From: an uncultured Gemmatimonadales bacterium
GTDB lineage: Bacteria; Gemmatimonadota; Gemmatimonadetes; Gemmatimonadales; GWC2-71-9
Length of the DNA: 64,000 nt
Assembly (NCBI GenBank): GCA_963773095.1
Contig: CAVYZY010000008.1
Span: forward strand, 266,589 to 330,588
Reading direction: 5' to 3'
Shown: positions 1,839-17,952 of the stretch, one piece after another
Position numbering within the stretch: the first letter of the stretch is position 1
Layout: every line of letters starts with the position of its first letter
Position numbers and translations under genes: made by a program
Notes under the pieces: model-generated
What the model was told of the DNA's origin: nothing
The model's input: only the letters and a program-made list of their open reading frames with translations
Databases searched by the model: none

Positions 1839-1863
1839 CTGGGTACGGGTTCGGGAGAGCACC

Positions 1864-2484
1864 ATGGACGACGTGCGGACACTGAAGGCGCACCAGCTCG
1901 ACGCGCTGCGCGAGGTCGCCAATATCGGCGCCGGCCACGCGGCGACCGCGCTTTCCCAGATGACCAACCGCACCATCATGATCGCGGTGCCCGAGGTCAA
2001 CGTGCGCCCGCTCGAGGACGTAGCCGAGCTTTTCGGCTCCGCCGATGCGGTCATCTCCGCCGTGCTCATGCACATGATGGGCGACCTGACCGGCCGCACC
2101 ATGATCCTCTTCCCCAACGAATCGGCCCGGAATCTCTGCGACATCCTGATGCGCCGTGCGCCAGGCACGACGCAGGAGTTCGGGCCGATGGAGCAGTCGG
2201 GGCTGAAGGAGGTCGGCAACATCCTCGTGAGTGCGTACCTCACGGCGCTGAGCGATTTCATGGGGATGATGCTCGTGCCGTCGGTGCCCAGCCTCGTGAT
2301 CGACCAGGCGGGGGCGATCCTCACCACTACCTACCTCAATTTCGGCCACGACCGCGATTACGTCTTCTGCGTCGAGACGGCATTCCAGGTCGCTGGCGCG
2401 TCCGAGCAGCTTCACGGGCATTTCCTGCTCCTGCCCGACCTGCCCTCGCTGCGCGCCATCTTCGACGCCATCCGCATCTCCTGA
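1864..2484 (+). CDS. cheC: CheY-P phosphatase CheC
   Basis: Both CheC active-site motifs D/S-x3-E-x2-N-x22-P can be counted exactly (DALREVAN+22+P and SGLKEVGN+22+P). EVANIGAGHAATALS signature. Confidence 0.88.
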   Translation: MDDVRTLKAHQLDALREVANIGAGHAATALSQMTNRTIMIAVPEVNVRPLEDVAELFGSADAVISAVLMHMMGDLTGRTMILFPNESARNLCDILMRRAPGTTQEFGPMEQSGLKEVGNILVSAYLTALSDFMGMMLVPSVPSLVIDQAGAILTTTYLNFGHDRDYVFCVETAFQVAGASEQLHGHFLLLPDLPSLRAIFDAIRIS

Positions 2485-2488
2485 CCCG

Positions 2489-5200
2489 ATGCCGGGTCCT
2501 GCGCCCTCCGATCGCGACCTTGCCATCCTCCGGTCGTTCGCGAGTCGCATTGACCCGTCGGACGCCGGCGCGCACAACAACCTCGGGGTCCTCTACTACC
2601 AGAAGGGCATGGTCGGCGAGGCGGTCGCCGCCTTCTCCCGCGCGCTCGAGATCGACTCGCGCATGCAGGTGGCCCAGGACAACCTGGAGCTTGCCTACCG
2701 GGAGAGCGGCTTCTACGACGGCCGGGTGGCCGAGCTGCAGGAACGCCTGCGCCGCATGCCCGATGATCGCGAGGCACGCTGGGAGCTGGGCCGGGCCTAC
2801 GCGTCGCTGAGCCGGCACGACCTGGCGGCGCAGGCCTTCGAGGAACTGCTGGTCCGCTCCCCTTCCGACGTTCCCGCCCTCATTCACCTCGGCCTGGCCG
2901 AGAAGGCACGCGGTCGCATCGAGGCGGCCGGCGGGTGCTTCGCGCTCGCGGCCGAGCTCGATCCGGGCAGCGCGGTCGCGCGATTCTACCAGGGCGAGAC
3001 GCTCTACAACCGCGGGCTCAACGACGCGGCGCTCGAGGCGCTCGAGGCCGCCATCGCGCACAACCCCGACTACGCCGAAGCCCACTACCTGCTCGCGTTC
3101 GTCTATGGCGACATGGGGCTGCACGAGCGCGCGCTCGAGGCCACCAAGCGGGCGATCGCGCTCAACCCCATGCTGTCGCGGGCGCAGGCGAATTTGTCGC
3201 TTGAGCGGCTGGTTCCTAAAGGCGAAGAGGCGGGGAGGGCGGGGAAGGCCGGGAGGGCGGGGGGCGCGGGCAACGATGCTGCAGGGACGCCGATGGAGCG
3301 CGATCCGCTGGCGCACTACCAGCTCGGGCTCGCCTTCCGGCAGAAGCGCTACTTCGCCGAGGCGCTGCGCGAGTACCGGATGGCGCTGGACGCGGGCGAG
3401 GACCGCTCGCTGGTGCTGCAGGCGATGGCCGAGGTGCACCTGCTGCGGCGGGACCACTCGACGGCGCTCGAGCTGTACGACGAACTGCTGCGGCAGAACC
3501 CCAGGGTGCCGAAGCTCTGGAACGAGCGCGGCGTGTGCCTGCACCAGGCGGGGCGCCGCGACGAGGCGGCGGTCGCCTACGAGCACGCGATCGCCGCCGA
3601 CCGGACCTACGCGCTGGCGTGGAACAACCTCGGCGTGCTGCGGGCGGGCGCGGCGGGCACGGACGCCGCGATGTCCGCCTTCCGCTCCGCGCTCGAGCGG
3701 CAACCCGGCCTCCACGCCGCGCGGCTCAACCTGGCCCTGCTGCTGATGCAGCGGCGCCAGCCGCAGGCGGCGCTCGAGGCGTACCGCGAGGTGCTCTCGC
3801 GCGACCACGCGAACGCGGTGGCGTGGAACGGGGTCGGCCTCGTGCTGATGGAGCTCAAGCGCTACACCGACGCGCGGAACGCCTTCGGCCGCGCCGTGGA
3901 GCACGACCCGGCGCTCGCCGCCGCGCACTACAACCTGAGCTTCACGCTGGGGCAGCTGGGCGACTTCGAGGGGGCGCTGCGCGAGACCAAGCGCGCGCTG
4001 GAGCTCGAGTCGTACTACGTGCCGCAGAAGTTCGCGCTCACGATCGACCTGCAGTACGAGGACCCCACGATCGCGATCGCGCCCGAAGTCGCGACCGAGG
4101 TGGGGCTCGAGTCGCTGGGCGGCGAGTTCGCGTTCGATCCCGGCGCGCTCGACGACCTGTTCGCGGAGCTGGCCCCCCCCGAAGCGCCGGTGGCAGCGGC
4201 GCGGGTCGAGGATCCGCTCACGCTGGCGCGCGACTACCTGAGCAAGGGACTGCTCGAACTGGCGACGGCCGAGGTGACCCGCGCGCAGGGACGCGGGGCG
4301 GGACGGGCCGAGGCGCAGACGCTGCTGGGCGAGATCTACGCGCGGCGCGGGCTGCACGGCGAGGCCCTGGAGCGGTTCCACACTGCGCGCGAGTCGAACC
4401 CCGGCGACCGGAGTGCCGCCCTGGGCGAGCTCCGCGCGCTGGTGGCGATGGAGCGCGCGGCCGAGGGCGGGATCCTCGCCGAGCAGCTGCTCGAGGCGTT
4501 CCCGCGCGACGTGGAAGTGCTGAGCGCCGTGGCGCGGGTGCGGCTCGCGATGGGCGATGCGACCCACGCGCTCACCGCGGTGCAGCTGGCGCAGACCCTC
4601 GCGCCGGGACGCTCCGACCTGCTGCACCTGCAGGCGCGGGTGGCGGTGCGGCTGGACGACCGGGCCGCGGCGATCGAGGCGTGCAAGCGCGCACTCGAAC
4701 TGGACGACTCGCTGGTGCAGGTGTGGTACGAACTCGGCCGGCTGGAAGAGGGACGCGAGGGCTGGGCGGCGGCGCAGGATGCGTACGTGCGGGCGCTCGA
4801 CATCTTGCCCACCTATCTCGAGGCCGGGCTGGCGCTCGGGGACCTGCTGCGGCGACGCATGCAGCATCGCGCGGCGCTCGACGTGCTGGTGGAACTCCTC
4901 ACCACCGACCCGTACGCGGTCGAGGCCCTGGTGCTGCTGGGAAAGGTGCTGTTCGAGCAGGGCCGCATCGACGAGGCGCTGGAAGGCTTCGGCCGCGCGC
5001 TGCGCTTCAATCCCGAGCACGCGGCGGCGCTCTTCCATTCGGGCGACGTGCTGGCGCGGAAGCGCCGCTTCGGGGACGCCGTGGAGGCGTGGGACCGGGT
5101 GTCGCAGATCGATCCCTCCGGGCCGTACGCCGCACCGGCGCGGAGCCGGGCGCGCTCGGCCCGGGATCTCCAGCACATCTTCGCCGCACAGCCGGGCTGA
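2489..5200 (+). CDS. Large TPR-repeat protein (903 aa)
   Basis: Repeated 34-aa TPR-like units throughout (NLGVLYYQKGMVGEAVAAFSRALEID, AHYLLAFVYGDMGLHERALEATKRAIALNP etc.). Starts 4 nt after the cheC stop. Carries an in-frame nonamer array at 3230-3274. Confidence 0.85.
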   Translation: MPGPAPSDRDLAILRSFASRIDPSDAGAHNNLGVLYYQKGMVGEAVAAFSRALEIDSRMQVAQDNLELAYRESGFYDGRVAELQERLRRMPDDREARWELGRAYASLSRHDLAAQAFEELLVRSPSDVPALIHLGLAEKARGRIEAAGGCFALAAELDPGSAVARFYQGETLYNRGLNDAALEALEAAIAHNPDYAEAHYLLAFVYGDMGLHERALEATKRAIALNPMLSRAQANLSLERLVPKGEEAGRAGKAGRAGGAGNDAAGTPMERDPLAHYQLGLAFRQKRYFAEALREYRMALDAGEDRSLVLQAMAEVHLLRRDHSTALELYDELLRQNPRVPKLWNERGVCLHQAGRRDEAAVAYEHAIAADRTYALAWNNLGVLRAGAAGTDAAMSAFRSALERQPGLHAARLNLALLLMQRRQPQAALEAYREVLSRDHANAVAWNGVGLVLMELKRYTDARNAFGRAVEHDPALAAAHYNLSFTLGQLGDFEGALRETKRALELESYYVPQKFALTIDLQYEDPTIAIAPEVATEVGLESLGGEFAFDPGALDDLFAELAPPEAPVAAARVEDPLTLARDYLSKGLLELATAEVTRAQGRGAGRAEAQTLLGEIYARRGLHGEALERFHTARESNPGDRSAALGELRALVAMERAAEGGILAEQLLEAFPRDVEVLSAVARVRLAMGDATHALTAVQLAQTLAPGRSDLLHLQARVAVRLDDRAAAIEACKRALELDDSLVQVWYELGRLEEGREGWAAAQDAYVRALDILPTYLEAGLALGDLLRRRMQHRAALDVLVELLTTDPYAVEALVLLGKVLFEQGRIDEALEGFGRALRFNPEHAAALFHSGDVLARKRRFGDAVEAWDRVSQIDPSGPYAAPARSRARSARDLQHIFAAQPG
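3230..3274 (+). repeat. In-frame 9-nt tandem array, 5 units (GCGGGGAGG GCGGGGAAG GCCGGGAGG GCGGGGGGC GCGGGCAAC) in the TPR gene
   Basis: Read directly; encodes AGR AGK AGR AGG AGN. Shares an identical 21-mer with 41447-41467. Confidence 0.85.
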
Positions 5201-5202
5201 TC

Positions 5203-6348
5203 ATGGCTATCGAGGGACCGCTCAAGGAACTGCACATCCACGATGTGTTCCAGCTGCTGGACCTCGGCCGGAAGACGGGCGTGCTGTGCGTCACTTCCGA
5301 GCTGCGGCAGAACTCGGGGATGGTCTACTTCGAGCGCGGGGCGGTGGTGGCGGCCGAGATCCGGAGCAACCCGCATCCGCTGGGCACGCTGCTGCTGCGC
5401 GCCGGCAAGATCGCGGAAGCCGACCTGGCGCGAGCGCGGGCGCTGCAGGGGGCGGGCGACGGCCGGCGGCTGGGCGACATCCTGGTGGACATGGGTGCGA
5501 TGAACCGGCGCGAGCTCGAGCGGCTGGTACGGCAGCAGGTGCAGGAAGTCATCTTCGAGCTGATGAACTGGTCGGAGGGATACTTCTCGTTCGAGGAGAC
5601 CACGGGTCCTCGGACGAGCGCCGAGGCGAGCGTGCGCATCCCGACCGAGTCACTGCTGATGGAGGCAGCGCGACGGATCGACGAGTGGTCGCGCATCGAG
5701 GCGAAGGTGCCGCACCTGGGCGTGGTGCCGCGCTTCGCCGATGCGGACAGCCAGCACGGCATGCTCGACCTGACGCCGTTCGAGTGGGAAGTGATCGCGA
5801 CAGTGGACGGCACGCGCGACCTGCGCGCGATTGCGGAAGCGCTGGGACGCGCGGAGTTCGAGATCGCGCGCACCATCTTCGGCCTGACGAGCACCGGCGT
5901 GGTGGTGCTGGACGACCCGACGCAGGTCTCATCGGGGCCCGAGACGCCGGACGTGATGCAGCTCGTCGCGCGCGCGGAGGAACAGCTCGCCTCGGGCGAC
6001 GTGGATTCGGCCCGCCTCATCGCCACCGAGGCGGCGGCCCACTTCCCGGACCAGGCAGGGGCGCACGCGGTGCTGGGGCGCGTGCTGCTCGCGGGCGGGC
6101 ACCATGCCGAGGCGGAGGAGGCGTTCTTCGAGGCACTCCGGCTCGAGCCGGGTTTCGCGTCGGCGCGACGGCTGCTGGGCACGTCCCAGGCGGCGAGCGG
6201 CCGCTTCGACGAGGCGATCGCCTCGTGGCAGCGCTGGCGGCAGCTGGCGGAACGGTCGCCCGAAGAGGTGAAGCTGCAGGAGGGAGTGGACCGGCTGCAG
6301 GCGGCCGCGCGGTTGCTGAGCGACGCGATCAAGGGGTGGTATGACTGA
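5203..6348 (+). CDS. PATAN/DUF4388 domain protein with helical insert and C-terminal TPR
   Basis: MAIEGPLKELHIHDVFQLLDLGRKTGVLCVTSE...MVYFERGAVVAAE matches the DUF4388/PATAN N-terminal pattern. It is followed by GspE-N-like LG..L...G.I helices and a C-terminal TPR (HAVLGRVLLAGGHHAEAEEAFFEALRLEP). ATG at 5203 is in frame with track ORF 3535-6348, whose upstream part is a shadow of the TPR gene. Confidence 0.8.
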   Translation: MAIEGPLKELHIHDVFQLLDLGRKTGVLCVTSELRQNSGMVYFERGAVVAAEIRSNPHPLGTLLLRAGKIAEADLARARALQGAGDGRRLGDILVDMGAMNRRELERLVRQQVQEVIFELMNWSEGYFSFEETTGPRTSAEASVRIPTESLLMEAARRIDEWSRIEAKVPHLGVVPRFADADSQHGMLDLTPFEWEVIATVDGTRDLRAIAEALGRAEFEIARTIFGLTSTGVVVLDDPTQVSSGPETPDVMQLVARAEEQLASGDVDSARLIATEAAAHFPDQAGAHAVLGRVLLAGGHHAEAEEAFFEALRLEPGFASARRLLGTSQAASGRFDEAIASWQRWRQLAERSPEEVKLQEGVDRLQAAARLLSDAIKGWYD

Positions 6349-7156
6349 CCCGATCCGCGAACTCACGGCGCAGCTGGCCTCCGATCCGCAGAGCCTCGTG
6401 TTCCTCGAGCTGGGCGAGGCGCTGCGGAACCGCGGGCAGCCAGCGGCCGCGTACAAGGTGGCGCGCATGGGCGTCAACCGGTATCCGGAGCTGGCGGCAT
6501 CACACGACCTGCTGGCGCGCGTGCTCGCCGACCAGGGTGACCGTCACGCGGCGGCCGAGGCGTGGCGGCGCGTGCTGGAGCTGTCGCCGGGACACCTCGG
6601 GGCCAACAAAGGTCTCGCGTTCCTGGCGTTCCGGGCGGGGGATCCCGAGGGCGCGCTCCCGTTTCTCGAGTCGGCGCTCGGTGCCGCGCCCGACGACGAG
6701 GGGCTCGCGATCGCGGTGCGGCGGGTGCGCACGGCGCTCGATGGCGCGGCAGCGCGCGCGGCGACCGCCGCCGCGAGGAGCGCCCCGAGCGCGCTCCGCG
6801 GCGCCGAGGGGTTCGAGCCGTTCGAAGATGCGCAGGGCGTGGTGCTGCTGGACACGCAGGGGCTGCGGCTCGCGGGCACGCTGGAGGCGCCCGACGGCCG
6901 CGACGTGAGCGACGCCGTGGCGGCGCACCTGCAGGGCGTGTCGCGTGAAGCGTCGCGCGCGGCCCGGCTGCTCGACCTCGGCGCGTGGGAGAGCGTGACG
7001 GCGGAGTCGCCGGATGGCCACCTCCTGGTGCTGCCGCCGACGCAGTCCACCGTGCTGCTCCTGCTGCGGGACGCGCGGGTGCCGGTGGGGCGGCTCGGGC
7101 TCATCGCGGAGCAGGCGGCGCGCGCGGCGCGCAGCTGGCTGGAACGGCTGGCATGA
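6341..7156 (+). CDS. TPR - Roadblock/LC7 fusion protein
   Basis: N-terminal TPR-like helices (LVFLELGEALRNRGQPAAAYKVARMGVNRYP). The C-terminal ~110 aa show a Roadblock pattern (GVVLLDTQGLRLAG...DAVAAHLQGV...ESVTAESPDGHLLVL...LLLLRDARVPVGRL). 8-nt overlap with the upstream gene. Confidence 0.7.
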   Translation: MTDPIRELTAQLASDPQSLVFLELGEALRNRGQPAAAYKVARMGVNRYPELAASHDLLARVLADQGDRHAAAEAWRRVLELSPGHLGANKGLAFLAFRAGDPEGALPFLESALGAAPDDEGLAIAVRRVRTALDGAAARAATAAARSAPSALRGAEGFEPFEDAQGVVLLDTQGLRLAGTLEAPDGRDVSDAVAAHLQGVSREASRAARLLDLGAWESVTAESPDGHLLVLPPTQSTVLLLLRDARVPVGRLGLIAEQAARAARSWLERLA

Positions 7157-7503
7157 GGAACCTGGGCGAGGCGCTCGAGCGGGTCACGCGGGTGGCGGGC
7201 ATCCGGGGTGCGATGCTGGTGTCCGAGTCGGACGGCCTCGTGGTGGCGGAGGCGCTGGCCGAGGGACTCGACGGCAACGCGGTCGCGGCCCTGGCGGCGA
7301 GCCTGACGCTGCGGCTCCGGCGCACGGCGACGAGCGCCGGGCTCGCAGTGCCGCAGGTGGTGCAACTCCGCGCCGAGCGAGGCACGGTGCTCAGCGTTCC
7401 CGCCGGCGACGACCTGCTGCTGGTGGCGGTGGCCGAGCGCGACGCGAACCTGGGCCTCGCGCGGCTCGAGCTCAGGCAGGCGGCGGCGCAGTTCGGATCA
7501 TGA
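7153..7503 (+). CDS. Roadblock/LC7 domain protein (116 aa)
   Basis: LERVTRVAGIRGAMLVSESDGLVVAE...AVAALAASL...QVVQLRAERGTVLSVPAGDDLLLVAVAERDANLGL is a typical Roadblock/MglB-fold pattern. ATGA overlap at both ends. Confidence 0.78.
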   Translation: MRNLGEALERVTRVAGIRGAMLVSESDGLVVAEALAEGLDGNAVAALAASLTLRLRRTATSAGLAVPQVVQLRAERGTVLSVPAGDDLLLVAVAERDANLGLARLELRQAAAQFGS

Positions 7504-7961
7504 GGGTCATCGAGCCGTGGGTGGCGGCGCCGCTGCAGGGCTTCCTCGACGAGTCGGGCGCGCGGCTCACGCTGCTCATGACCTCCGCGGGGCAGGTGAT
7601 CGCGCAGGACGGCTTCACCCGCTCGGTGGACGTGATGGCGGCGGCCGCGCTCGGGGCCGCGATCATGGCGTCGACGGACGCGATCGCTGACGTGATGAGC
7701 ACGCCGAGTTTCGGAGTGGTGCTGCACCAGGGCCCGAGGCAGAGCCTGGTGCTCCGGTCCTTCCCGACGCCGCGGGGACGCTGGATCGGGCTGGTGGTGT
7801 TCGGGTCGGAAACGTCGGTGGGGCTGGTGCAGCTCTTCTTCCAGGAACTGGAGGAGGCGCTGGCGAAGGCGGCGCCGGCGGAGCCAGCCACGCGGGCGGT
7901 GCTGGCGGAAAATTTCGAGTACGAACTCAACGCGAGCCTGCGCTCGCTCTTCGGACGGTAA
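7500..7961 (+). CDS. mglB: Roadblock/LC7 protein directly upstream of mglA (MglB-like GAP candidate)
   Basis: 153 aa; LQGFLDESGARLTLLMTSAGQVIAQDGF...MAAAALGAAIMASTDAIA...SLVLRSFPTPRGRWIGLVVF. Position 4 nt upstream of mglA mirrors the mglBA arrangement. Confidence 0.62.
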   Translation: MRVIEPWVAAPLQGFLDESGARLTLLMTSAGQVIAQDGFTRSVDVMAAAALGAAIMASTDAIADVMSTPSFGVVLHQGPRQSLVLRSFPTPRGRWIGLVVFGSETSVGLVQLFFQELEEALAKAAPAEPATRAVLAENFEYELNASLRSLFGR

Positions 7962-7965
7962 CGGG

Positions 7966-8568
7966 ATGTCGCTGGTCAACTTCACTGCGCGCGAGATCAC
8001 CTGCAAGATCGTCTACTACGGGCCGGGCCGGTCCGGGAAGACGACCAACCTGCAGTACATCTTCGGCCGCGTGCCGGATACCCGGCGCGGGCGGATGGTG
8101 TCGCTCGCCACGCAGGGCGACCGGACGCTGTTCTTCGATTTCCTCCCCATCGACCTGGGGAGCATCTCGGGGTTCCAGACCAAGTTCCAGTTGTACACCG
8201 TGCCGGGCCAGAGCTACTACAACGCGACGCGGAAGCTGGTGCTGCAGGGCGCCGACGGCATCGTGTTCGTGGCCGACAGCCAGGCGCGACGGTTCGACGA
8301 CAACCTCGAGAGCCTGCAGAACCTGCAGGAGAACCTGCTGAGCCAGGGCGTGGACGTGCGGACGATGCCGATCGCGTTCCAGTACAACAAGCAGGACCTG
8401 CCGGGCGAGCTGGTGCTGAAGCCGTCCGAGCTGGACGAGTCGCTGAACTTCCGCGGCGTGCCGAGCTTCGGCGCCGACGCGCTGCACGGCAGCGGCGTGT
8501 TCGAGACGCTCAGGGGCATTTCCGAACTGGTGCTGCGAAAGCTGGCCGCGGGAGGGATCGCCGAATGA
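7966..8568 (+). CDS. mglA: Ras-like small GTPase MglA
   Basis: Near-colinear with Myxococcus MglA as I recall it: REITCKIVYYGPGRSGKTTNLQYI (P-loop), DRTLFFDFLP, LYTVPGQSYY (catalytic Gln), QYNKQDL (NKxD). Confidence 0.93.
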   Translation: MSLVNFTAREITCKIVYYGPGRSGKTTNLQYIFGRVPDTRRGRMVSLATQGDRTLFFDFLPIDLGSISGFQTKFQLYTVPGQSYYNATRKLVLQGADGIVFVADSQARRFDDNLESLQNLQENLLSQGVDVRTMPIAFQYNKQDLPGELVLKPSELDESLNFRGVPSFGADALHGSGVFETLRGISELVLRKLAAGGIAE

Positions 8569-10810
8569 GCACGCTGCAGGGTGGTCACCGGTTCGATGCG
8601 CTGGTGGTGGGCACGGCCAACCGCACCGCGGTGACGGCCGGCCGCGCGGTGGCGAGCGCGCCGGGGTCGGCCTACAACCCGCTGCTCATCTACGCGCGCC
8701 CTGGCATGGGCAAGACGCACCTGCTGGGCGCGATCGCGCACCAGGTGCTGGTGGTGAACCCGTCGGCACGCATCGAGTTCCTGACGCTGGACGAGTTCAT
8801 CGAGGGATTCCACGCGGCGCTTGCCGTGGGCCGGAGCGACGAGTATCGCGCCCGGTTCGGGGCCGCCGACCTGCTGCTGCTGGACGACATCCAGTTCCTG
8901 AGCCGGCAGCGGGAGATGCAGGCGGAACTGCTGCGGGTGATCGACGTGATGCTCGGGGGGGAAAGCAGGTGGTGCTCACCAGCGACCGCGCGCCGGCCGA
9001 GATCGAGTCGCTCGACGACCGCCTGCTCACGCGCTTCGCCGGCGGGCTGGTGCTCGACATCGCGCAGCCCGACTACGAGACCCAGGTCGCGATCCTGTAC
9101 CGAAAGGCCGAGGAGCGCGGCGCGAGCTTCCCGGAGGGCGTGCTGGAGGCGGTGGCCTCGCTCGGCATCGAAAGCGTGCGCGAACTGGTGGGCGCGCTCA
9201 ACCGGCTGGTGGCGTTCCAGGCGGTGAGCGAGGCGCCGCTCGACGCGGCGCAAGCGCGGCTGCTGATCGGCGGGCCGCAGCCGGCGGTGGCGGCCGACGA
9301 GCTCGTGCTGGACCAGGCCGAGTCGCTCGAGTTCGCAGTGGCGGGCCATGCGGAGGTGGCCCACGCAGGCGGCGAATCCCGCCGGGTGCTGGCCGACGCG
9401 CTTCCCGGCGTGATGCTCGGGCAGTCGGACATGCTGGGCGGCCCCGCCGACGAGCTGCCGTCGCGCGACGGCGCCGGGCACGACGGCAGCCCGCAGGACT
9501 TCGGGATGCCGGGTGAGGCGCACGAGTACAGCGACGCGCACGAGTTCACGGCACCGCGCGACGCGGGCGCGCCGCCGGACAAGCTGGGGGAGAGCCTGGC
9601 GGACAAGCCGGCGCTGCAGGCCGATCGCGACGAGTTCGGCGACTTCCTGTCCGACCTCGCGGCGACGCTCGCGCGGCAGGTGGATCCGTGGCGGGCGCGG
9701 GTAGGCGAGGCCATCCTGCGCTGGGAGGGCGAGGGCTTCCGCACGTATCGCCTGGAGCGGCTGCTGGAGGATCCCGAGCCGCCCGATCCCGAGTCGGTGA
9801 TGATCCAGTACGAGGCCGACGCGGAGCAGCTGCTGGAGCTGCGCATGGAAGCGGAGTCGCTCGCCCCCGAGATGGCGGGTGCGGCGCAGCTCACCGATCC
9901 CGGCAACATGGCCGCGGCGGAAGCCTACATGCAGCGCGTGCGCGAGGGTGCCGTCCCGCCGCCGGGGCCGGTCGAGCACTGGCTGCTCGACGACCTGATC
10001 GAGGGGCCGGGGAACCGCATGGCGGTGCGCGCGGCGCTCGCGGCGATTGCCGAGCCGGGGCAGAAGTACAACCCGATCGTGGTGGTGGGCGGTTCGGGCG
10101 TGGGCAAGACCCACCTGCTGCACGGCATCGGGAACGCGCTGGCGCTGGCGAGAGACGGGCATGTGGCCTGCCTCAGCGCGCACGACTTCACCCAGGAACT
10201 GATCGACGCGATCGATCGCGACGGCGTTACGGCATGGCGCAACCGCTACCGGCGCTGCACGGCGCTGCTGCTCGACGACGTGCACCTGATCGCCGGGAAG
10301 GAGCGCACGCAGGAGGAGCTGTTCCTCCTGTTCAACCTCTTCCTCGAGTCGAACCGGCAGCTTGGGTTTGCCTCGGCGGTGCCACTGGCGGAGCTGTCGG
10401 GCGTGGAGCCGCGGCTGCTGACGCGGCTCGAGGGCGGGCTGGTGGTGGAATTGCCGCCACCCGACCGGGAGCTGCGCCAGCAACTGGTGGAACGGATCCT
10501 CACGGCGCGGGGCCAGGAGGCGGACGCGGAACTGGTGACCTACATCGCGTCGCGCCCGGCGGAGTCGGCGCGCGCGGTGCAGGGCTACGTGCAGCGGGTG
10601 CTCCACTCCGCCGACTCGCAGCAGACCAGGCCCAGCGCGGCCCTCGCGCGCGAAGTACTGGAGGGCGGCGCGCGTGTCGTGCGGAAGAGCACCGGCGCCG
10701 GTCGCTCGATCAGCGTGTCAGCAGCGTCGTCGGGCGGCGTGAAGAGCCGGGAGAAGACGGTGTGGTCGTGGCCCACGCTGTCGGACCGCGTCATCGAGGA
10801 GTGGCGATAG
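8565..10810 (+). CDS. Tandem DnaA/Hda-like AAA+ ATPase without DnaA domain IV; apparent -1 frameshift at G7 run 8955-8961
   Basis: Module 1: YNPLLIYARPGMGKTHLL (Walker A), LLLLDDIQFL (Walker B), then across the frameshift GKQVVLTSDRAPAEIESLDDRLLTRFAGGLVLDI (sensor 1/box VII), SVRELVGALNRL (box VIII). Acidic ~270-aa linker. Module 2: YNPIVVVGGSGVGKTHLL, ALLLDDVHLI, RLLTRLEGGLVVEL. No HTH domain IV. Track ORFs 8565-9227 and 8969-10810 are the two frames. Total length 2246 nt fits one -1 shift. Confidence 0.8.
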
Positions 10811-12429
10811 TGGCGATCAAGGGATCCCTCAAGGAAGCGAGCCTTCCCGACGTCATCCAGCTGCTCTACCTGGGGCGGCGGACCGGGTGCCTGGCGATCA
10901 CCGACCGCCAGAACCTGGGCTACATCTACTTCGATGACGGGAAGATCGCGTACGCCTCGATCGTGAACCGGCGCGACCGGCTGGGCGACATGCTGGTGCG
11001 CAACGGCCGGATCAACGCGGACCAGCTGCGCCGGGCGGTGGACCAGCAGGCGAGCGACCGCGAGGTGCGCCTGGGCGAGATCCTGCTGGGTCAGGGCGCG
11101 CTCACGCGGCAGGAACTCGACGACTACATGCGCCTCCAGATCGAGGAGGCGGTCTACTACCTGTTCACGTGGACCACGGGCGCCTTCAACTTCGAGGCGG
11201 GTGTCCGTCCCGATCCGCGCGACTTCCAGGTGCAGATCAACCCCGAGTGGCTGCTGCTCGAGGGCGCTCGCCGCGTGGACGAGTGGAGCCTGATCGAGAA
11301 GAAGATCCCCAGTTTCGACCTCATCTTCACGGCCGACCAGGCGCGGGTGGAGGCGGCGGGAGCGCCGCTGTCGGAGCAGGAGCAGTTGATCCTGCCGCTG
11401 CTCGATGGCCGGCGCGACGTGCAGCAGGTCGTGGACGAATCGGGCCTGGTGGAGTTCCTGGTGGGCCAGGCGCTCTACGGCCTGATCACGGCGGGCTACG
11501 CGCATCGTACCGGCTCCTCGGCGACGACCATCTCCCCGCGGGTCAACGACGCGCGAGTGGAGGAGCACCGCAACCTGGGCGTCGCGTTCTACCGCACCGG
11601 GATGCTGGACGAAGCGCTGCGGGAGTTCCGCCGGGTGGCGGACCTGCGCCCCACCGAGGGGAGCGCGCCGTTCTACCTCGGGCTCATTGCGCTGCGGCAG
11701 GGCAAGTGGGAGGAAGGGGTGGAGGCGTTCAAGCTCGCCGTGGAGAAGGGCGGGCCGCGTCCGGCCGCGCTGCACAACCTCGGGTTCGCCCTGGAGCAGC
11801 TCGGCCGGCTCGAGGAGTCGGAGGCGGCGTATGGCGACGCCACGAGCCGCGCGCGGGACGACCACCGCATCATGCTTGGCTGGGCGATCGCGGCGCTGCA
11901 GCGCGGCGAGCACCAGGTGGCGGTGAGCCGGCTCGAGCGCACCCGCGAACTACTGGGCGACAAGACGCCGCCGGCGGCGTGGCACTGGGCGATGGCGCTG
12001 GCGCAGGCGGCGAGCGACGACTTCGAGGCGGCGCTGGAGACGGCGCGCGCCGGTGTCACCGCGTACCCGGAGCAGGCGGTGCTGGGCAACAACCTGGCGG
12101 TGCTGCTGGAGCTCCGGGGCGACACGGCCGGGGCGGAGCAGATGCTGAAGCAGGCGTTCGCGGCCGATCCGGCGCTGCCGCAGGTGTCGAAGAACACCGG
12201 CGACCTGCTCTATCGCGCGGGACGGTACGACGAGGCCTTCGAGGCGTACGAGCGCGCGGCGCGCGTGGCGCCGGCGCTGGGCGATGACCTCTACTTCAAG
12301 CTGGGCAACATCGCATACAAGCGGCGGGACACGGCGCGGGCGCGGGCGAGCTGGGAGCATGCGACGGAACTCAACCCGAGCCACCAGCTGGCACGGGCCA
12401 ACCTCGACATGCTGGCGGCCGAGGCATGA
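10810..12429 (+). CDS. PATAN/DUF4388 domain protein with helical insert and C-terminal TPR (second copy)
   Basis: VAIKGSLKEASLPDVIQLLYLGRRTGCLAITD...GYIYFDDGKIAYAS parallels the N-terminus of the 5203 gene. RLGDMLVRNGRINADQL / RLGEILLGQGALTRQEL helices; TPRs from NLGVAFYRTGMLDEALREFRRVADLRP onward. GTG 10810 (or GTG 10801) is in frame with track ORF 9688-12429. Confidence 0.8.
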   Translation: MAIKGSLKEASLPDVIQLLYLGRRTGCLAITDRQNLGYIYFDDGKIAYASIVNRRDRLGDMLVRNGRINADQLRRAVDQQASDREVRLGEILLGQGALTRQELDDYMRLQIEEAVYYLFTWTTGAFNFEAGVRPDPRDFQVQINPEWLLLEGARRVDEWSLIEKKIPSFDLIFTADQARVEAAGAPLSEQEQLILPLLDGRRDVQQVVDESGLVEFLVGQALYGLITAGYAHRTGSSATTISPRVNDARVEEHRNLGVAFYRTGMLDEALREFRRVADLRPTEGSAPFYLGLIALRQGKWEEGVEAFKLAVEKGGPRPAALHNLGFALEQLGRLEESEAAYGDATSRARDDHRIMLGWAIAALQRGEHQVAVSRLERTRELLGDKTPPAAWHWAMALAQAASDDFEAALETARAGVTAYPEQAVLGNNLAVLLELRGDTAGAEQMLKQAFAADPALPQVSKNTGDLLYRAGRYDEAFEAYERAARVAPALGDDLYFKLGNIAYKRRDTARARASWEHATELNPSHQLARANLDMLAAEA

Positions 12430-13244
12430 AGGCGCCCGAGGATGCGGAGTTCGACGCACTGGCCAGGGACCTGACGGTGCGCACTGGCGTGTCGCTGGCG
12501 TCCTACAAGCCGAAGTGCCTGCGCCGCCGGATCGCGGTGCGAATGCGCGCCTGCGGGGTGCACACGTACGACGAGTATCGCGGCGTACTGGCGAACACCC
12601 CCGAAGAAGTGGAGCGGCTGCACGACGCCCTCACGATCAACGTCACCCGCTTCTTCCGGAACCCGGAAACGTGGGAAGCGGTGAAGTCGAACGTGCTGCC
12701 GGGCCTGCTGGCGAAGAACGCGCCGGTGCGCGCGTGGAGCGCGGGCTGTTCCTCGGGGGAGGAGGCGCACACGCTGGCCATGCTCTGGGCCGACGCGGCG
12801 GAACGGGCCGGTCACCCGGAGTGGCTGGACCGCTTCAGCGTGGAAGCGACGGACATCGACCGCGAGTGCATGCTGCGGGCCCGGGCGGGACAGTACCGCA
12901 CCGAAGCGTTCGTGGAGACGCCGTCGCGGCTGGTGGAGCGATGGACGCGCCCCGAGGGCGAGGGCCGCATCGTCGACGCGCGGCTGCGCGCGCGGATCGC
13001 CGTGTCGACGCTCGACCTGACGCGCGACGCGCTCCCGGTGCGGCGGTTCGACCTCGTGGTGTGCCGCAACGTGGTGATCTACTTCGACCGGGTGACGCAG
13101 GAGCGACTGTTCGTCGGGTTTCACGACGCACTGGTGCCAGGCGGCTTCCTGATCCTCGGCAAGGTTGAAACCCTGGTCGGCCCGGCGCGCGACCTGCTGG
13201 CGCTCGTGGATGTCCGCGAGCGCATCTATCGGAGGCCGGTGTGA
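12426..13244 (+). CDS. cheR: Chemotaxis protein methyltransferase CheR
   Basis: LRRRIAVRMRACGVHTYDEYRGVL, TINVTRFFRNPETWE, VRAWSAGCSSGEEAHTLAM (SAM-binding) are typical CheR blocks. ATGA overlap upstream. Confidence 0.9.
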   Translation: MKAPEDAEFDALARDLTVRTGVSLASYKPKCLRRRIAVRMRACGVHTYDEYRGVLANTPEEVERLHDALTINVTRFFRNPETWEAVKSNVLPGLLAKNAPVRAWSAGCSSGEEAHTLAMLWADAAERAGHPEWLDRFSVEATDIDRECMLRARAGQYRTEAFVETPSRLVERWTRPEGEGRIVDARLRARIAVSTLDLTRDALPVRRFDLVVCRNVVIYFDRVTQERLFVGFHDALVPGGFLILGKVETLVGPARDLLALVDVRERIYRRPV

Positions 13245-13729
13245 GCGCACGGGAGATAGTCGTGCGGGTGTCGGACATGGCCGTGGCGACGGCGGACGAG
13301 GTGCTCGTCACCGTGGGGCTCGGCAGCTGCGTCGCGATCATGCTCTACGATCCGGAGGCGAGGATCGGCGGGCTCGCGCACATCCTGCTGCCCTCGAAGG
13401 CGCTCACCCGGCAGGCGGAGAACCCGGCCAAGTTCCCGCAATCGGCGGTGCCGGCGCTGCTGGAGCGGATGGTGGCGGTGGGCGCGAGCCCGCGGCGGAT
13501 CACGGCGCGGCTGGCGGGCGGGGCGAGCATGTTCTCGCAGCTGGCGCCGCCGGGCACGATCCAGATGGGCGAGCGCAACCTCGTGGCCACGCGCCAGGCG
13601 CTGAGCGCGCAGAACGTGCCGCTCACCGGCGAGGCGGTAGGGGGCGACTTCGGCCGCACGGTGCGGCTGCACTGCAAGGACGGCCGGATCGACGTGTCAT
13701 CGGTCGCGCACGGTGTCCAGCACCTCTGA
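13241..13729 (+). CDS. cheD: Chemoreceptor glutamine deamidase CheD
   Basis: [30 protein letters not shown] is the CheD signature with catalytic Cys/His. GTGA overlap with cheR. Confidence 0.9.
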
Positions 13730-14786
13730 GCGACGGTCGGTCCTGATCGCCGACGACAGCCCGTTCTTCCGCCGCCTGCTTTCCGACATCCTGGAGCGCA
13801 GCGGGGAGTTCACCGTGGTGGGCACGGCACGCAACGGCATGGACGCGGTGCAGAAGGTGCACCGGCTGCAGCCCGACCTGGTGCTGATGGACCTGGAGAT
13901 GCCCGAGCTCGATGGGCTGGGCGCCATCGGGTACATCATGTCGGAGGCACCGCGGCCGATCGTGGTGGTGTCGAGCTACGCGGGGCCGGGCACGTCGGCG
14001 GCGATCCGCTCGCTGGAGCTGGGCGCGGTGGAAATCGTGGCGAAGGAGTCGGGCCGCGATGCCGCCGACCTGCAGCGGTTCGGCGAGCGGCTGCTGGAAA
14101 CGCTGCGGCTCTCCGCCGGTGCGGAACTGTTCCGGCTGCCGATCCTGGCGCGGCCGGCCCAGGGGATGCCGCCGGCGGCACTGTTCTCGCTGCCGGGGCG
14201 CGCGCGCGGCTGCGTCGCGATCGCGGCATCGACCGGCGGCCCGCGCGCGCTCGCGGAGGTGGTGCCGAAGCTGTCACCCGGACTCGGGGCGGGCGTCGTG
14301 ATCGTGCAGCACATGCCGCCCGGGTTCACCCGGAGCCTGGCCGAGCGGCTGGCGGGCCAGAGCCGGTTGCGGGTCGTGGAAGCGGAGCACGGGACACCGT
14401 TCCTCGAGGACACGGCGTACGTGGCGCCGGGAGACTGGCACATGCGCGTGGCGGCGGGACCGGAAGGGGTGCACCTCCTGCTCGATCGCGAACCCACGAT
14501 GTGGGGTGTGCGACCGGCGGCCGACCCGCTCTTCCGCTCGGTGGCCGAGGTGTTCGGCGCGCAGGCAGTGGGGGTGGTGCTCACCGGGCTCGGGCGCGAC
14601 GGGGCGGACGGACTGCGGCGCATCCACGAGGCGGGTGGCATCGGCATCGCGCAGGATCACGCCAGCGCCACGATCGACGGCATGCCCGCGGCGGCGCGGG
14701 CGGCGGGCGGTGCCGATCACGTGCTGTCGGTGACGCAGGTGGCGGGGCAGGTGGATGCGGAGATCCGCCGCATGCGCCTGCTGTGA
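13713..14786 (+). CDS. cheB: Chemotaxis response regulator / protein-glutamate methylesterase CheB
   Basis: Receiver domain [14 protein letters not shown]...[14 protein letters not shown] plus methylesterase domain ([29 protein letters not shown]). Confidence 0.92.
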
Positions 14787-15205
14787 GCGCCACGAGCGGG
14801 GCGTTCCTGCTGGTGCGGGCGGGCGGCCGAAGGGTCGGCCTCGCGGTGGAGGCGGTGATCGAGGTGCGCGAGCCCGACGAGCTGGGCACGATCCCGTCGC
14901 ACGAGCCGGCGCTGCGCGGCGTCACTGCGCTCCGGGGCCAGCTGATGCCGGTGCTCAACCTGGCGGCGCTGCTGGGCGGCGAGGCGGGGCCGGGACTGGT
15001 GGTGGTGGTCACCGATCTCGGCGGGCGCCGCGTGGGGCTCGAGGTGGATGACGCGGACATCGTCGTGGGCTCGGGTGTGTCACTGCTGCGCGCCGACGAA
15101 ACGCTCCCGTGGGCCCGCGCCATCGCGGTACTGCCCGACCAGGTATACGTGCCGCTGCTCGACCTGGGTGCCCTGTCAGCGCGGCTTACGGAGGTCAGCA
15201 CATGA
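14783..15205 (+). CDS. cheW: CheW-like coupling protein (short, divergent)
   Basis: [23 protein letters not shown]...[29 protein letters not shown] is the CheW pattern. GTG 14783 overlaps the cheB stop (GTGA). In frame with track ORF 14501-15205. Confidence 0.78.
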
Positions 15206-15669
15206 CACATGGAGACGACGTCCAGCTCGTCACCTTCCGGTGCGGTGGACACGACTTCGCGTTCGACATCCTGCAGTTGCAGCGGATCCTCCGCTACGAG
15301 GTGCCGTCGCCGCTGCCGGACGCGCCCGACTTCCTGGAGGGCGTGCTCTCCTACGAGGGCAGTGCCGTGCCGGTGGTGGACCTGCGCAAGCGCCTGGGGC
15401 TGCCGGCCACGGTGACGGAGGAGACGCGGGTGATGCTGCTCGAACTCGACGGGCACCGCGTGGGCGTCGTGGTGGATGCGGCGCGCGAACTGGTGCGGGT
15501 GGACAGCACTACGATCAGCGCGCCGCCGCCGATGGTCCGCGGGCTGGCGGCGCGGTACATCGCCGGCATCCTGGCGCGGCCCGAGCGCACCCTCGTCATC
15601 CTGAACGCCCAGCGGCTCCTGGCCGACGACGAACGGAACGTCCTGCACCACCTGGAGATCCCGACGTGA
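15202..15669 (+). CDS. cheW: CheW coupling protein
   Basis: LVTFRCGGHDFAFDILQLQRILRYE...LPDAPDFLEGVLSYEGSAVPVVDLRKRLGL. ATGA overlap with the previous gene. In frame with track ORF 15109-15669. Confidence 0.88.
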   Translation: MTHGDDVQLVTFRCGGHDFAFDILQLQRILRYEVPSPLPDAPDFLEGVLSYEGSAVPVVDLRKRLGLPATVTEETRVMLLELDGHRVGVVVDAARELVRVDSTTISAPPPMVRGLAARYIAGILARPERTLVILNAQRLLADDERNVLHHLEIPT

Positions 15670-16559
15670 GTGAACCGACCGGTTCCGGCCCCGATCCGTG
15701 GGTGACGGGCCTCCGCGCCACGCACGCCGACATCGCGCGGCGCCTGGATGCGGCCACCACCGCCATCGACCGGGACGTCCTGAAGCGGGAGATCATCTCG
15801 TTCTTCAAGCGGGTGGACGGGGCACTGACCGACCTGACGCGGCTCAAGGAAGAGATCCGCGTCCTGGTGAACCAGTACAAGCAGGTGGCCTCGACGGCCG
15901 ACTCGGCGCAGGCCCCGCAGTTCACCGGCGCCTTCCCGGTGGTGCAGGCCGATCACCTCGGCGCGTCGACGTATATCGAAAAGGGCTGGAGCCTGATCTC
16001 GCTCGGGGATCACGCCGGTGCGATCCAGGCGCTGCAGCGCGCGCTCCAACTGGCACCGGGCGACACCCAGGCGCAGTCGCTGCTGGGGTGGGCACAGATG
16101 CTCCACGAGGACTACGACGACGCGCTGAGCACCTTCTCGCGGGTGCTGATGAAGGAGCCGGCCAACTCGCTCGCCCGGATCAATGTGGGCTACATTTGCC
16201 TCAAGAAGGGGATCTTCGGCGAGGCGATCGAGCACCTGTCCAAGGCCATCCGGCTGGACAACGACCGCAAGGCCACGCTGTACGCGCACTTCTACCTCGG
16301 CCTCGTGTACCTCGAGCGGGAAATGTTCGAGGACGCGCAGTCCTTTTTCCGGAAGACGCTGCAGCTCGGACCCAACCTCATTGAGGCCTACTTCGAGCTG
16401 GGCCGCGCCCAATGGTTCGCCGGTGAACGGGAGCCGGCGGTGGCGACCTGGACGGAGGGGCAGAAGGCCAACCGGTTCAACCCGTGGTCAAAACGGTGCG
16501 GCGAGATGCTGGAGCGTGCGGCAGCGGGCGAGGAGATTCCGCGGGCGCTGGTTTCGTAG
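15666..16559 (+). CDS. TPR-repeat protein (last gene of the che/mglA operon)
   Basis: GTG 15666 overlaps the cheW stop (GTGA). N-terminal coiled region, then TPRs (GWSLISLGDHAGAIQALQRALQLAP, AHFYLGLVYLEREMFEDAQSFFRKTLQLGP). Followed by an inverted nonamer-array hairpin. Confidence 0.8.
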   Translation: MSEPTGSGPDPWVTGLRATHADIARRLDAATTAIDRDVLKREIISFFKRVDGALTDLTRLKEEIRVLVNQYKQVASTADSAQAPQFTGAFPVVQADHLGASTYIEKGWSLISLGDHAGAIQALQRALQLAPGDTQAQSLLGWAQMLHEDYDDALSTFSRVLMKEPANSLARINVGYICLKKGIFGEAIEHLSKAIRLDNDRKATLYAHFYLGLVYLEREMFEDAQSFFRKTLQLGPNLIEAYFELGRAQWFAGEREPAVATWTEGQKANRFNPWSKRCGEMLERAAAGEEIPRALVS

Positions 16560-17521
16560 CGAAGACGGGACGGCGGGGAAGGCGGGCCGCATTCGCCCTC
16601 CTGCTCTCGCTTGCCGTCCGTCACCTCCCCGGCCTCCCCGCCGTCCCCGCCCTCCTCGCCCAGGGCGACCTCGCCACGGTCCAGATTGGGAACGTCTCAG
16701 TCGTCGCGGCGCAGCCCGAGCTCAACGCCGCGATGGGGCTGGCGGAGTGGGCCGACCAGCCGGCCAGCTGGCCGGGCCTGGGCCGGCGGAGCCCGCCACC
16801 TTTCCGGCTCATCCTGGCGCACGATGCCGCCGGGCTTTCCCGGCTCACGGGGGGCCGCGCCCCGGCCTGGGGGGCGGGGATCACGCTGCCCGGGCTGCGC
16901 CTCGTGGCCCTCCGCGCCGACGCGGACCCTGCACATACGCTCCGCCACGAGCTTGCCCACCTGGTGCTGCACGACGCGGTACGCGTCCCGCTGCCACTCT
17001 GGTTCGAGGAGGGGTATGCAGTATACGCGGCGGGTGAGTGGGACCTGCTCGATGCGCTGAGTCTCAACTACGCCGTGGTCGGCGGGGCGACGCCGAGCCT
17101 CGATTCGCTCAACCGCGAGCTCCGGGGCCATCCGGCGGGGATCAGCACGGCGTACGCGCTCTCGGCGTCCGCAGTCCTGGAAATGGCGCGCCGGAATCCG
17201 AGCCGCAGCCTGACGCCACTGGTGGAGCTTCTCTCGGCCGGGATGGCCTTTGATTCCGCGCTGCATGCCACGACGGGCCTCAGCGCGGAGAACTTCGACG
17301 AGTCGTGGCAACGAGGCATTCGGAAGCGGTACAGCCTGTTCACCTGGCTGGCGGCCGGTGGGGCCTGGGCACTGCTCGCGCTGGCGCTGATGGCGGGGAC
17401 GTACTGGCGGCGCCGGGCCGACCGCAGGAGACGCTTGGCACTGGATGAAGGGTGGGAACTGCCGCCGGAGCCGGAAATGCAAGTGGCGCAGGCGCTTGAC
17501 CCGACTCCCTCCGGCGAGTAG
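16484..17521 (+). CDS. Peptidase-MA-like zinc metalloprotease-fold protein with C-terminal TM helix
   Basis: HELAHLVLHD (HExxH) followed by LWFEEGYAVYAAGEW, as in the Peptidase_MA_2 pattern. C-terminal LFTWLAAGGAWALLALALMAG. Start is uncertain: ATG 16484 or GTG 16496 overlap the upstream gene, and no in-frame start lies between there and the hydrophobic N-region. Confidence 0.6.
   Translation: MVKTVRRDAGACGSGRGDSAGAGFVAKTGRRGRRAAFALLLSLAVRHLPGLPAVPALLAQGDLATVQIGNVSVVAAQPELNAAMGLAEWADQPASWPGLGRRSPPPFRLILAHDAAGLSRLTGGRAPAWGAGITLPGLRLVALRADADPAHTLRHELAHLVLHDAVRVPLPLWFEEGYAVYAAGEWDLLDALSLNYAVVGGATPSLDSLNRELRGHPAGISTAYALSASAVLEMARRNPSRSLTPLVELLSAGMAFDSALHATTGLSAENFDESWQRGIRKRYSLFTWLAAGGAWALLALALMAGTYWRRRADRRRRLALDEGWELPPEPEMQVAQALDPTPSGE
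16564..16660. repeat. Inverted pair of nonamer arrays (G-rich 16564-16590, C-rich 16625-16660) forming a hairpin just after the operon's last stop
   Basis: GACGGGACG GCGGGGAAG GCGGGCCGC ... reverse complement of the downstream arm reads GCGAGGAGG GCGGGGACG GCGGGGAGG CCGGGGAGG. ACGGCGGGGA pairs perfectly with TCCCCGCCGT. Confidence 0.75.
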
Positions 17522-17536
17522 TCTCTTTAGCCTTAT

Positions 17537-17737
17537 ATGCCAGAACTGACAGCCTCCAAGGTACCGACCGCCCGCGGCCGCTGGCCATTGGCGCCCCGCA
17601 ACCTGATCATCATTGGTGCGGCGCTCGCGTCCATCGTCGCGGGTTACATGGTTCTCTCGGCAGGACATGCCAGCGCCGCGGCGGTGCTGCTCGTGCTGGG
17701 ATATTGTGTGCTGCTCCCGCTCGGTATCGTCATCTAG
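17537..17737 (+). CDS. Small two-TM membrane protein (66 aa), function unknown
   Basis: Two hydrophobic helices (NLIIIGAALASIVAGYMVL, AAAVLLVLGYCVLLPLGIVI) after a basic N-terminus. AT-richer upstream region. No motif-level identification. Confidence 0.45.
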   Translation: MPELTASKVPTARGRWPLAPRNLIIIGAALASIVAGYMVLSAGHASAAAVLLVLGYCVLLPLGIVI

Positions 17738-17808
17738 ACAAGGCCCAGGCCGGGGCCGTTGCAGATGCCGTTCCGGAGCAGAGACTCGAACCGCGCCGAC
17801 CCTGATGC

Positions 17809-17883
17809 GGGCGATTAGCTCAGCCGGTTCAGAGCGCCTGCCTTACACGCAGGATGTCGGGGGTTCGAATCCCTCATCGCCCA
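17809..17883 (+). tRNA. tRNA-Val (anticodon TAC)
   Basis: Hand-folded cloverleaf: acceptor GGGCGAT/ATCGCCC, D-arm GCTC-AGCCGGTTCA-GAGC, anticodon arm CCTGC-CTTACAC-GCAGG, T-arm GGGGG-TTCGAAT-CCCTC, discriminator A. 75 nt, no encoded CCA. Confidence 0.9.
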
Positions 17884-17952
17884 TTTCTGCGCGCCAGCCC
17901 GGCGCGCGTCACACGGCCGTCCGGCCGGTGTTCCCGCAGGAGACATGAACGC

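Follow-up and report, generated by a model that had tools for sequence, protein, structure and literature searches.

The 64,000 nucleotides (nt) analysed here, referred to as the window, derive from an uncultured Gemmatimonadales bacterium (GenBank assembly GCA_963773095.1, contig CAVYZY010000008.1, positions 266,589 to 330,588). Between the small-GTPase gene mglA and a gene for a PATAN-TPR protein they carry a gene for a two-headed protein related to the replication initiator DnaA. This DnaA-like protein consists of five parts: a DnaA domain III (module 1), an acidic linker, a five-helix domain, a second domain III (module 2) and a C-terminal peptide. Their positions, with lengths in amino acids (aa), are as follows.

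8565 to 10810, plus strand: gene for the two-headed DnaA-like protein, 748 aa when the G-run is read as 8 G
8955 to 8961, plus strand: run of 7 G breaking the reading frame, 8 G in the otherwise identical gene of locus L089
8565 to 9277, plus strand: module 1, DnaA domain III (aa 1-238), from profile, structure and motif census
9269 to 9625, plus strand: acidic disordered linker of variable length (aa 236-354)
9626 to 9958, plus strand: conserved five-helix middle domain (aa 355-465), DEFGDFL...W...LRWEGEGFR...DP..N..AEA
9959 to 10678, plus strand: module 2, divergent DnaA domain III (aa 466-705), from profile and motif census
10679 to 10807, plus strand: C-terminal tail, a disordered stretch followed by the conserved peptide SREKtVWsWPtlsDRVIEEWR at the extreme C-terminus

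In the window the gene appears as two overlapping open reading frames (ORFs) in different frames, ORF A (8565-9227, 220 aa) and ORF B (8969-10810, 613 aa), which meet inside the 7-G run; one added G gives a single 748-aa protein. An intact copy of 2247 nt lies on a contig of 437 kb (L089; ENA ERZ25039554 contig_23705). It differs from the window copy only by the missing G, and its product equals the frame-corrected window protein with no residue differing, in line with the length of about 748 aa proposed in a preliminary description of this DNA made from the letters alone. A relative with 89% identity (L001) has no G-run at the matching site. The 8-G copy and the lack of the run in L001 rule out a programmed frameshift and point to a miscounted homopolymer, or to a lesion of very recent date, in a gene that otherwise is without decay. 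G-runs are classic slippage sites, and from the 7 G and the two overlapping ORFs one might read the gene in this genome as a true pseudogene, or as a phase-variable gene turned off by slippage, with only fragments being made. We find this very unlikely, as the otherwise 100% identical 8-G gene in another assembly speaks against decay and the missing run in the 89%-identity relative against a conserved switch. Another relative, on an ENA contig of 743,854 bp, was similarly called in two pieces (P0525/P0526, 561 + 211 aa), as homopolymer errors of long-read assemblies would give, and this suggests that frameshift errors recur in these assemblies.

Pfam Bac_DnaA matches the protein in two stretches (E = 3.7e-88). 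Taken alone, module 1 scores 243 bits against the DnaA profile TIGR00362, 72 bits against Hda and 50 bits against IstB, and the corresponding values for module 2 are 196, 85 and 41 bits. Since the DnaA profile outscores Hda and IstB for each of them, both modules are placed in the DnaA clade by their sequences. Module 1 is ~50% identical to domain III of Bacillus subtilis DnaA, Aquifex DnaA is the best match of module 2, and between the two modules the identity is 30%. The motifs of module 1 are GMGKTH, LLLLDD, VVLTSDR, DRLLTRFAGG and SVRELVGALNRL, which place Walker A at G47-T51, Walker B at D107/D108, sensor I at D141, the box VII arginines at R153/R157 and sensor II at R206. Module 2 carries GVGKTH, LLLDDVH and PRLLTRLEGG; it retains Walker A and B, box VII (R617/R621) and sensor II (R670), with Ala in place of the sensor-I Asp. 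Further, an AlphaFold model of the intact orthologue P0002, for which 57 family sequences were used, has two AAA+ modules predicted with confidence (predicted local distance difference test, pLDDT, about 90), disorder at 239-354 and 702-730, a confident helical domain at 356-462 and a terminal helix. The best Foldseek matches are DnaA domain III, with B. subtilis 8bv3 on top (template modelling score, TM, 0.92; root-mean-square deviation, rmsd, 1.7 Å).

The two modules cover only positions ~103-337 of the 437 positions of TIGR00362, that is, domain III. The match begins at residue 3-5, so that domains I and II are absent, and only 43 residues, mostly disordered, follow module 2. When the family alignment and the middle domain were compared by hhalign with an alignment of domain IV, the probability was only 0.1-0.2%, and a cryptic domain IV in the middle domain or the tail is thereby ruled out. 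The preliminary description had listed the motifs of both modules, an N-terminus starting directly at domain III without domain I/II, and a missing domain IV; every motif was found in the corrected protein, and the two statements on the domains hold. It had also proposed profile and Foldseek searches for another AAA+ clade and a search for a hidden domain IV, and these returned the DnaA type for both modules and no domain IV. In a rough neighbour-joining tree without support values the module-1 and module-2 sequences form separate clades, each phylum-wide, and by this comparison the tandem looks ancient rather than the product of a recent internal duplication.

Relatives of the protein are named 'chromosomal replication initiator protein DnaA' by the Joint Genome Institute (JGI), and as a whole the window protein does reach 433 bits on TIGR00362, above the cut-off of 343.9. 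This figure is the sum of two sub-threshold domain-III matches, 243 + 196, and the JGI name is a recurrent misannotation that arises because two partial matches add up above the cut-off. The name given by NCBI, where there is one, is only 'DnaA/Hda family protein [Gemmatimonadales bacterium]'. With domains I, II and IV absent, and with the gene never beside dnaN and always in a che/mgl/PATAN cluster in the 64 loci described below, the chance that this is the replication initiator of the organism is practically nil.

Two further AAA+ groups were considered and rejected. For the DnaC/IstB family, the modules score 41-50 bits on IstB against a cut-off of 200, and the whole protein 27 bits on DnaC against 357. 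For the tandem type II AAA+ unfoldases (p97, NSF, ClpB), the Foldseek alignments with p97 have an rmsd of about 20 Å and 12% identity, and each module alone matches DnaA.

Between the modules an acidic linker of about 270 aa had been described at first. An acidic, disordered linker is indeed present and is 119 aa long (D+E 23, K+R 6; 5 to 131 aa across the family), whereas the remainder is a conserved helical domain of 111 aa that folds confidently (pLDDT 87). A model of this middle domain matches 116 of the 148 listed family representatives, and in each case the match directly follows module 1. No relative was obtained below E = 0.3 when the PDB was searched with a profile, Foldseek with the confident model gave nothing below E = 4, and Pfam scans of the members produced only scattered weak matches. 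The last ~20 residues of the protein, SREKxVWxWP...DR(V/L)IEE(W/L)(R/D)-COOH, are conserved phylum-wide. Repeats resembling the middle domain were also seen in a protein of 1248 aa (P0246; L088 10001-13747), where about eight of them (W..EGY.V..L ... L.DP) precede a single DnaA domain III; its neighbours are archaeal-looking or unusual, namely an E2-like UQ_con protein, an H+-PPase and Cas4.

The DnaA-like gene is embedded in a cluster of chemosensory, GTPase and TPR genes, all on the same strand.

3 to 2484, plus strand: cheA (cut by the window start) and cheC/cheX
2489 to 5200, plus strand: large TPR protein, 903 aa ('TPR900')
5203 to 6348, plus strand: PATAN (DUF4388) + TPR protein 1, 381 aa
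6341 to 7156, plus strand: TPR + Roadblock protein, 271 aa
7153 to 7503, plus strand: Roadblock/LC7 protein, 116 aa
7500 to 7961, plus strand: mglB-like Roadblock protein, 153 aa
7966 to 8568, plus strand: mglA, 240 bits to Myxococcus xanthus MglA (5ymx), TVPGQ motif
10810 to 12429, plus strand: PATAN + TPR protein 2, 539 aa, GTG start
12426 to 14786, plus strand: cheR, cheD and cheB, in this order, with overlapping starts and stops
14783 to 16559, plus strand: two cheW genes and a TPR gene closing the cluster

The genes follow each other in the order listed, with the DnaA-like gene between mglA and the second PATAN-TPR gene, and nearly all junctions in the cluster are overlapping or a few bases wide. 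Judged by sequence, MglA is bona fide and MglB is recognisable (36 bits vs 6h5b_B). The ATG of the DnaA-like gene at 8565 overlaps the mglA stop (ATGA), and its stop TAG at 10808-10810 overlaps the GTG start at 10810. Both junctions had been pointed out in the preliminary description, and from them the gene is predicted to be translationally coupled to mglA upstream and to PATAN-TPR downstream. The whole chemosensory cluster (1-19671) comprises cheA, three or more cheW, cheC/X, cheR, cheD and cheB; in syntenic relatives cheY is located upstream of the region equivalent to the window. A second DnaA-like gene was not found within the 64-kb window. Directly downstream of the chemosensory cluster comes the division and cell-wall (dcw) cluster at 19911-35232, with rsmH, Mur ligases, mraY, ftsW, murC and ftsZ (34057-35232), and the adjacency to rsmH is likewise seen in L001-L003. 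When the ATPase and its neighbours were compared with the anti-phage models of PADLOC only weak generic P-loop and TPR matches of 31 bits or less were obtained, on which a defence system was rejected.

A protein search returned, among the matches listed, intact orthologues of 745-760 aa with 77-89% identity, along with hundreds of proteins of 640-700 aa at ~60% identity. In a profile search of 1.84 billion representatives, well over 100 clusters (50% identity) of the two-headed architecture rank above the first canonical DnaAs, and the family amounts to thousands of sequences. A second subgroup is named Longimicrobiales or Gemmatimonadota and a third Gemmatimonadaceae. Scanning species-representative genomes gave 64 Gemmatimonadota loci (L004-L067) with a two-headed gene, from Gemmatimonadales, Gemmatimonadaceae, Gemmatimonas and Longimicrobiales, with identities down to 36%. 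In 64/64 loci mglA lies directly upstream and PATAN-TPR directly downstream of the DnaA-like gene, wherever the contig reaches. The wider order TPR900-PATAN-Robl-MglB-MglA-X-PATAN-CheR/D/B, in which X is the DnaA-like gene, is kept as well, with some flanking genes missed by tblastn in the most divergent loci. The placement in a GTPase/chemosensory operon, noted at first for the window only, is thus extended, as the mglBA/PATAN/che context was seen in every Gemmatimonadota locus examined. In a 65th locus (L073) PATAN-TPR is present downstream, and mglA was undetectable in the 6 kb upstream. One 4-kb contig (L005; JBOGZC010000159.1) with Robl-mglB-mglA-X-PATAN at 55-82% identity belongs to a metagenome-assembled genome (MAG) labelled Solirubrobacterales and is probably mis-binned.

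More distant relatives retain parts of this neighbourhood. In P0185 the DnaA-like gene overlaps a PATAN-TPR gene on its downstream side and the locus lacks che and mgl genes, and in P0172 it lies downstream of cheY-cheA-cheW-cheC-TPR-PATAN. P0168 (L084 7373-12094) stands directly downstream of an orthologue of TPR900 (29% identity over 811 aa, E = 8e-86). The P0168 locus is from a low-GC MAG labelled Gemmatimonadetes and has two bactofilin genes nearby and no che or mgl genes; its TPR protein and TPR900 have the N-terminal motif DP.DAGAHNNLGV in common. The two-headed member P0216 (L094 8001-11691) is fused to a C-terminal receiver domain, and its neighbours are Hpt-REC-Hpt-REC genes, a hybrid histidine kinase and a REC-HD (HD-GYP-like) protein.

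A run of genes bearing MshEN is found downstream of pilD in three Ca. Fermentibacteria-related genomes (L087 4309-15923; L092 5797-15198; L093 5800-17268), of which one protein carries that name. The run has four genes and ends at TonB_C and pilB in both loci with a long enough contig. DnaA-III modules are present in three of the genes, of which as many as two are two-headed: a protein of ~980 aa has two DnaA-III matches in 2/3 loci, and in one of ~1990 aa a giant coiled coil separates the two heads. Over all these loci the constant partners of the family are the PATAN-TPR protein, the large TPR protein and the che genes. MglA/MglB are added in most Gemmatimonadota and MglA is missing at the loci of some distant relatives, and the pilus machine is a recurring theme among the relatives in the neighbouring phylum.

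A census of key residues was made over 341 family members. The Walker A Lys, the Walker B Asp-Asp, the sensor I Asp, both box VII Arg and the sensor II Arg of module 1 show no variation in any subgroup. Module 2 retains Walker A and B in Gemmatimonadales and Gemmatimonadaceae, the sensor-I Asp being Ala in the lineage of the window, and in the Longimicrobiales-like subgroup it no longer has a Walker A (K to G/A), a Walker B (DD to HG) or a sensor II. The box VII arginines of module 2 are nevertheless invariant in that subgroup (118/118). As box VII is kept where the ATP site of module 2 is lost, selection seems to preserve one ATP site, in module 1, together with the arginine finger of the other module, everywhere in the family. 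When AAA+ proteins assemble, an ATP site is completed by the finger from the adjoining unit, and Hda puts its own arginine finger on DnaA-ATP. In E. coli DnaA the arginine finger is Arg285 (PMC3287180). We infer that module 2 acts on the nucleotide of module 1, either within or between chains.

Conserved residues also bear on nucleic acid binding. The H/B motifs of DnaA for single-stranded DNA involve Val211/Arg245 in E. coli and V176/K209 in Thermotoga maritima (PMC3287180), and the equivalent residues are H83/Q115 in module 1 and I547/K579 in module 2. In module 2 of the Gemmatimonadales group I547 is kept in 119/119, K/R579 in 119/119 and R581 in 117/119. The claim of the preliminary description that the protein is stripped of DNA binding is therefore only partly borne out: the DnaA-box domain is gone, and module 2 keeps the H/B residues I547 and K579. 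These residues, the retained initiator-clade fold including the initiator-specific motif region, and the presence of relatives in type IV pilus clusters would fit a protein that binds single-stranded nucleic acid depending on ATP, either as a spiral on the DNA or RNA of a type IV pilus machine during DNA uptake, or as a signalling platform scaffolded on nucleic acid. We regard such a function as quite improbable. The hydrophobic H-motif residue of module 1 is replaced by His/Thr/Glu, Thr takes the place of K579 in the Longimicrobiales-like group, the neighbourhood has no competence genes, and the MglA/Che context favours regulation over DNA processing.

A role close to replication was considered as well. 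Hda is itself a DnaA-III paralogue without DNA-binding domains, and the relation of its finger to the ATP of DnaA is the one proposed here for module 2 and module 1. The DnaA-like modules might thus dock on the genuine DnaA at its AAA+ domain, in the manner of Hda during the regulatory inactivation of DnaA (RIDA), and stimulate hydrolysis or titrate DnaA, so that initiation would be tied to chemosensory, polarity or division signals. Such a regulator would agree with the closeness of module 1 to canonical domain III, with box VII arginines invariant in both modules, and with a cluster that adjoins the dcw/ftsZ cluster. However, Hda is a single module of ~230 aa with an N-terminal clamp motif and acts in replication. 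Its beta-clamp motif is of the QL[SP]LPL type, and this is absent from the N-terminus of the DnaA-like protein, which reads MSTLQGGHRFDALVVG. Further, the 72 and 85 bits of the modules on the Hda profile (TIGR03420) are below the cut-off of 194.8, so membership in Hda proper was rejected, and the conserved neighbours and fusion partners are all signalling or pilus components (PATAN, TPR, Che, REC, MshEN) and never replication genes. On balance we consider a replication-linked regulator unlikely.

We instead favour, as somewhat probable, a non-replicative tandem AAA+ protein of the DnaA type (initiator clade) that is a fixed part of a signalling module of Che, MglA-MglB, PATAN-TPR and large TPR proteins, where it would work as an ATP switch or scaffold. 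A switch or scaffold role outside replication had been suggested from the first reading of the sequence, and that suggestion is supported, with the refinements given here. In such a mechanism module 1 would bind and hydrolyse ATP, and module 2 would lend the arginine finger of its box VII to an adjacent ATP site, in cis or in trans, as Hda does to DnaA. ATP would bring about a closed or oligomeric head-to-tail state, which hydrolysis would release. The middle domain and the C-terminal W-x-W-P...EEW peptide would be docking elements whose exposure or valency varies with the nucleotide state, and their likely partners would be the PATAN-TPR protein encoded by the coupled gene and the large TPR protein. 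That the acidic C-terminus (...IEEWR) stands beside TPR proteins recalls the docking of EEVD on TPR, which we mention as an idea only. The output may be control of cell polarity, of the motor driving the type IV pilus, or of both, as an analogy to Myxococcus MglA-SgmX-PilB and cyanobacterial PATAN-PilB would suggest.

It should be noted that several observations weigh against this reading. Module 2 retains the DnaA residues for single-stranded DNA (I547, K579/R581), the AlphaFold model does not place the two modules confidently with respect to each other (predicted TM score, pTM, 0.47), and the gene copy in the window is frameshifted. The chemosensory cluster (1-19671) has no gene for a methyl-accepting chemotaxis protein inside it, and no pilus genes were found within the 64-kb window. 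Given the adjoining dcw cluster, the output could also be cell-cycle or division polarity rather than motility.

The PATAN-TPR proteins have a feature that may add a second signal. Each contains a helical insert (10978-11139, aa 57-110, in PATAN-TPR 2; ~5377-5538, aa ~59-112, in PATAN-TPR 1) with two tandem motifs of 24 residues that resemble MshEN, for example RLGDMLVRNGRINADQLRRAVDQQ-ASDREV-RLGEILLGQGALTRQELDDYMRLQ. The motif by which MshEN binds cyclic di-GMP (c-di-GMP) is RLGxxLVxxGxIxxxxLxxxLxxQ (PMC5013675). PATAN2 is 45% identical over 42 residues to the N-terminus of a Fermentibacteria MshEN-DnaA protein; the Pfam MshEN model did not match the inserts, and the likeness is that of the published 24-residue motif and this one pairwise alignment. 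On these similarities the PATAN-TPR proteins may be c-di-GMP receptors. Further, we speculate that the DnaA-like protein might form a head-to-tail, DnaA-like ATP spiral, with module 1 active and module 2 as the Arg donor. As a landmark or scaffold that can be switched, the spiral might draw in the PATAN-TPR and large TPR proteins and regulate polarity or the pilus motor from the cytoplasm, and its state might be set by MglA-GTP, possibly along with c-di-GMP acting at the PATAN inserts. This more specific picture is tentative and in our view rather unlikely.

Compared with DnaA domain III (PF00308; 8bv3, 2z4r, 2hcb), both modules have the same fold with Walker A/B, the two-Arg box VII and sensor II, and module 1 superimposes with an rmsd of 1.5-1.7 Å. 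Unlike DnaA, the protein has two copies of the domain in one chain, lacks domains I, II and IV, has lost the sensor-I Asp of module 2, and adds the helical domain and the C-terminal peptide; its gene is in a signalling operon and not beside dnaN. DnaC, DnaI and IstB are likewise initiator-clade AAA+ proteins reused outside origin recognition, but they are single modules with other partners and only weakly similar to the modules described here. By analogy, the operation of the DnaA-like protein most resembles a built-in DnaA-Hda pair.

In its context, the system most resembles, again by analogy, MglA-SgmX(TPR)-PilB of Myxococcus and PATAN-PilB1/PilC of Synechocystis. In Myxococcus the TPR protein SgmX is recruited by MglA and in turn brings in PilB, and PATAN and TPR proteins co-occur with SgmX (PMC11580455). 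As in the MglA-MglB/SgmX network of M. xanthus (plus FrzS and SopA), the operon of the window has MglA, MglB, more Roadblock proteins, large TPR proteins and a Frz-like Che pathway, but no DnaA-like ATPase is described for that network in the literature examined. In Synechocystis PATAN binds PilB1 and PilC (10.1101/2021.06.11.447907). The PatA-type PATAN proteins of cyanobacteria (PixE, PixG) are also encoded beside chemosensory genes, whereas PATAN in the window is fused to TPRs and not to a receiver domain, and is coupled to the DnaA-like ATPase. MshEN, the c-di-GMP-binding N-terminus of MshE/PilB ATPases (PMC5013675), is fused to DnaA-III modules in Fermentibacteria, beside pilB, but is not present in the DnaA-like protein of the window. 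That PATAN genes occur close to mglA/mglB is already on record (PMC4316618). Full-text searches, whose coverage did not extend to the 2006 PATAN paper (PubMed 16543275), found neither a paper about this protein nor a report of a DnaA-like ATPase in an MglA/PATAN context.

The family may also have some practical consequences. TIGR00362 is also in use as a single-copy phylogenomic marker, and in that use the DnaA-like paralogue could disturb it in Gemmatimonadota. The family is present in MAGs labelled Gemmatimonas, a genus with cultured species, and it poses a defined AAA+ question, namely whether the arginine finger of a degenerate module controls the ATP site of an active one. For research on MglA/PATAN polarity it offers a conserved new candidate component.

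The known uses of DnaA-type AAA+ modules are replication initiation, direct helpers of it (Hda, DnaC) and IstB-type helpers of transposition. The family described here would be a new use of the DnaA fold, as a large, phylum-wide group in which the module is doubled, is without the origin-binding parts and is wired into a small-GTPase/chemosensory pathway. Should the spiral be real, self-assembly of the DnaA type would be a new principle of bacterial spatial organisation, and MglA networks outside Myxococcota would have in this protein a core component that had gone unrecognised.

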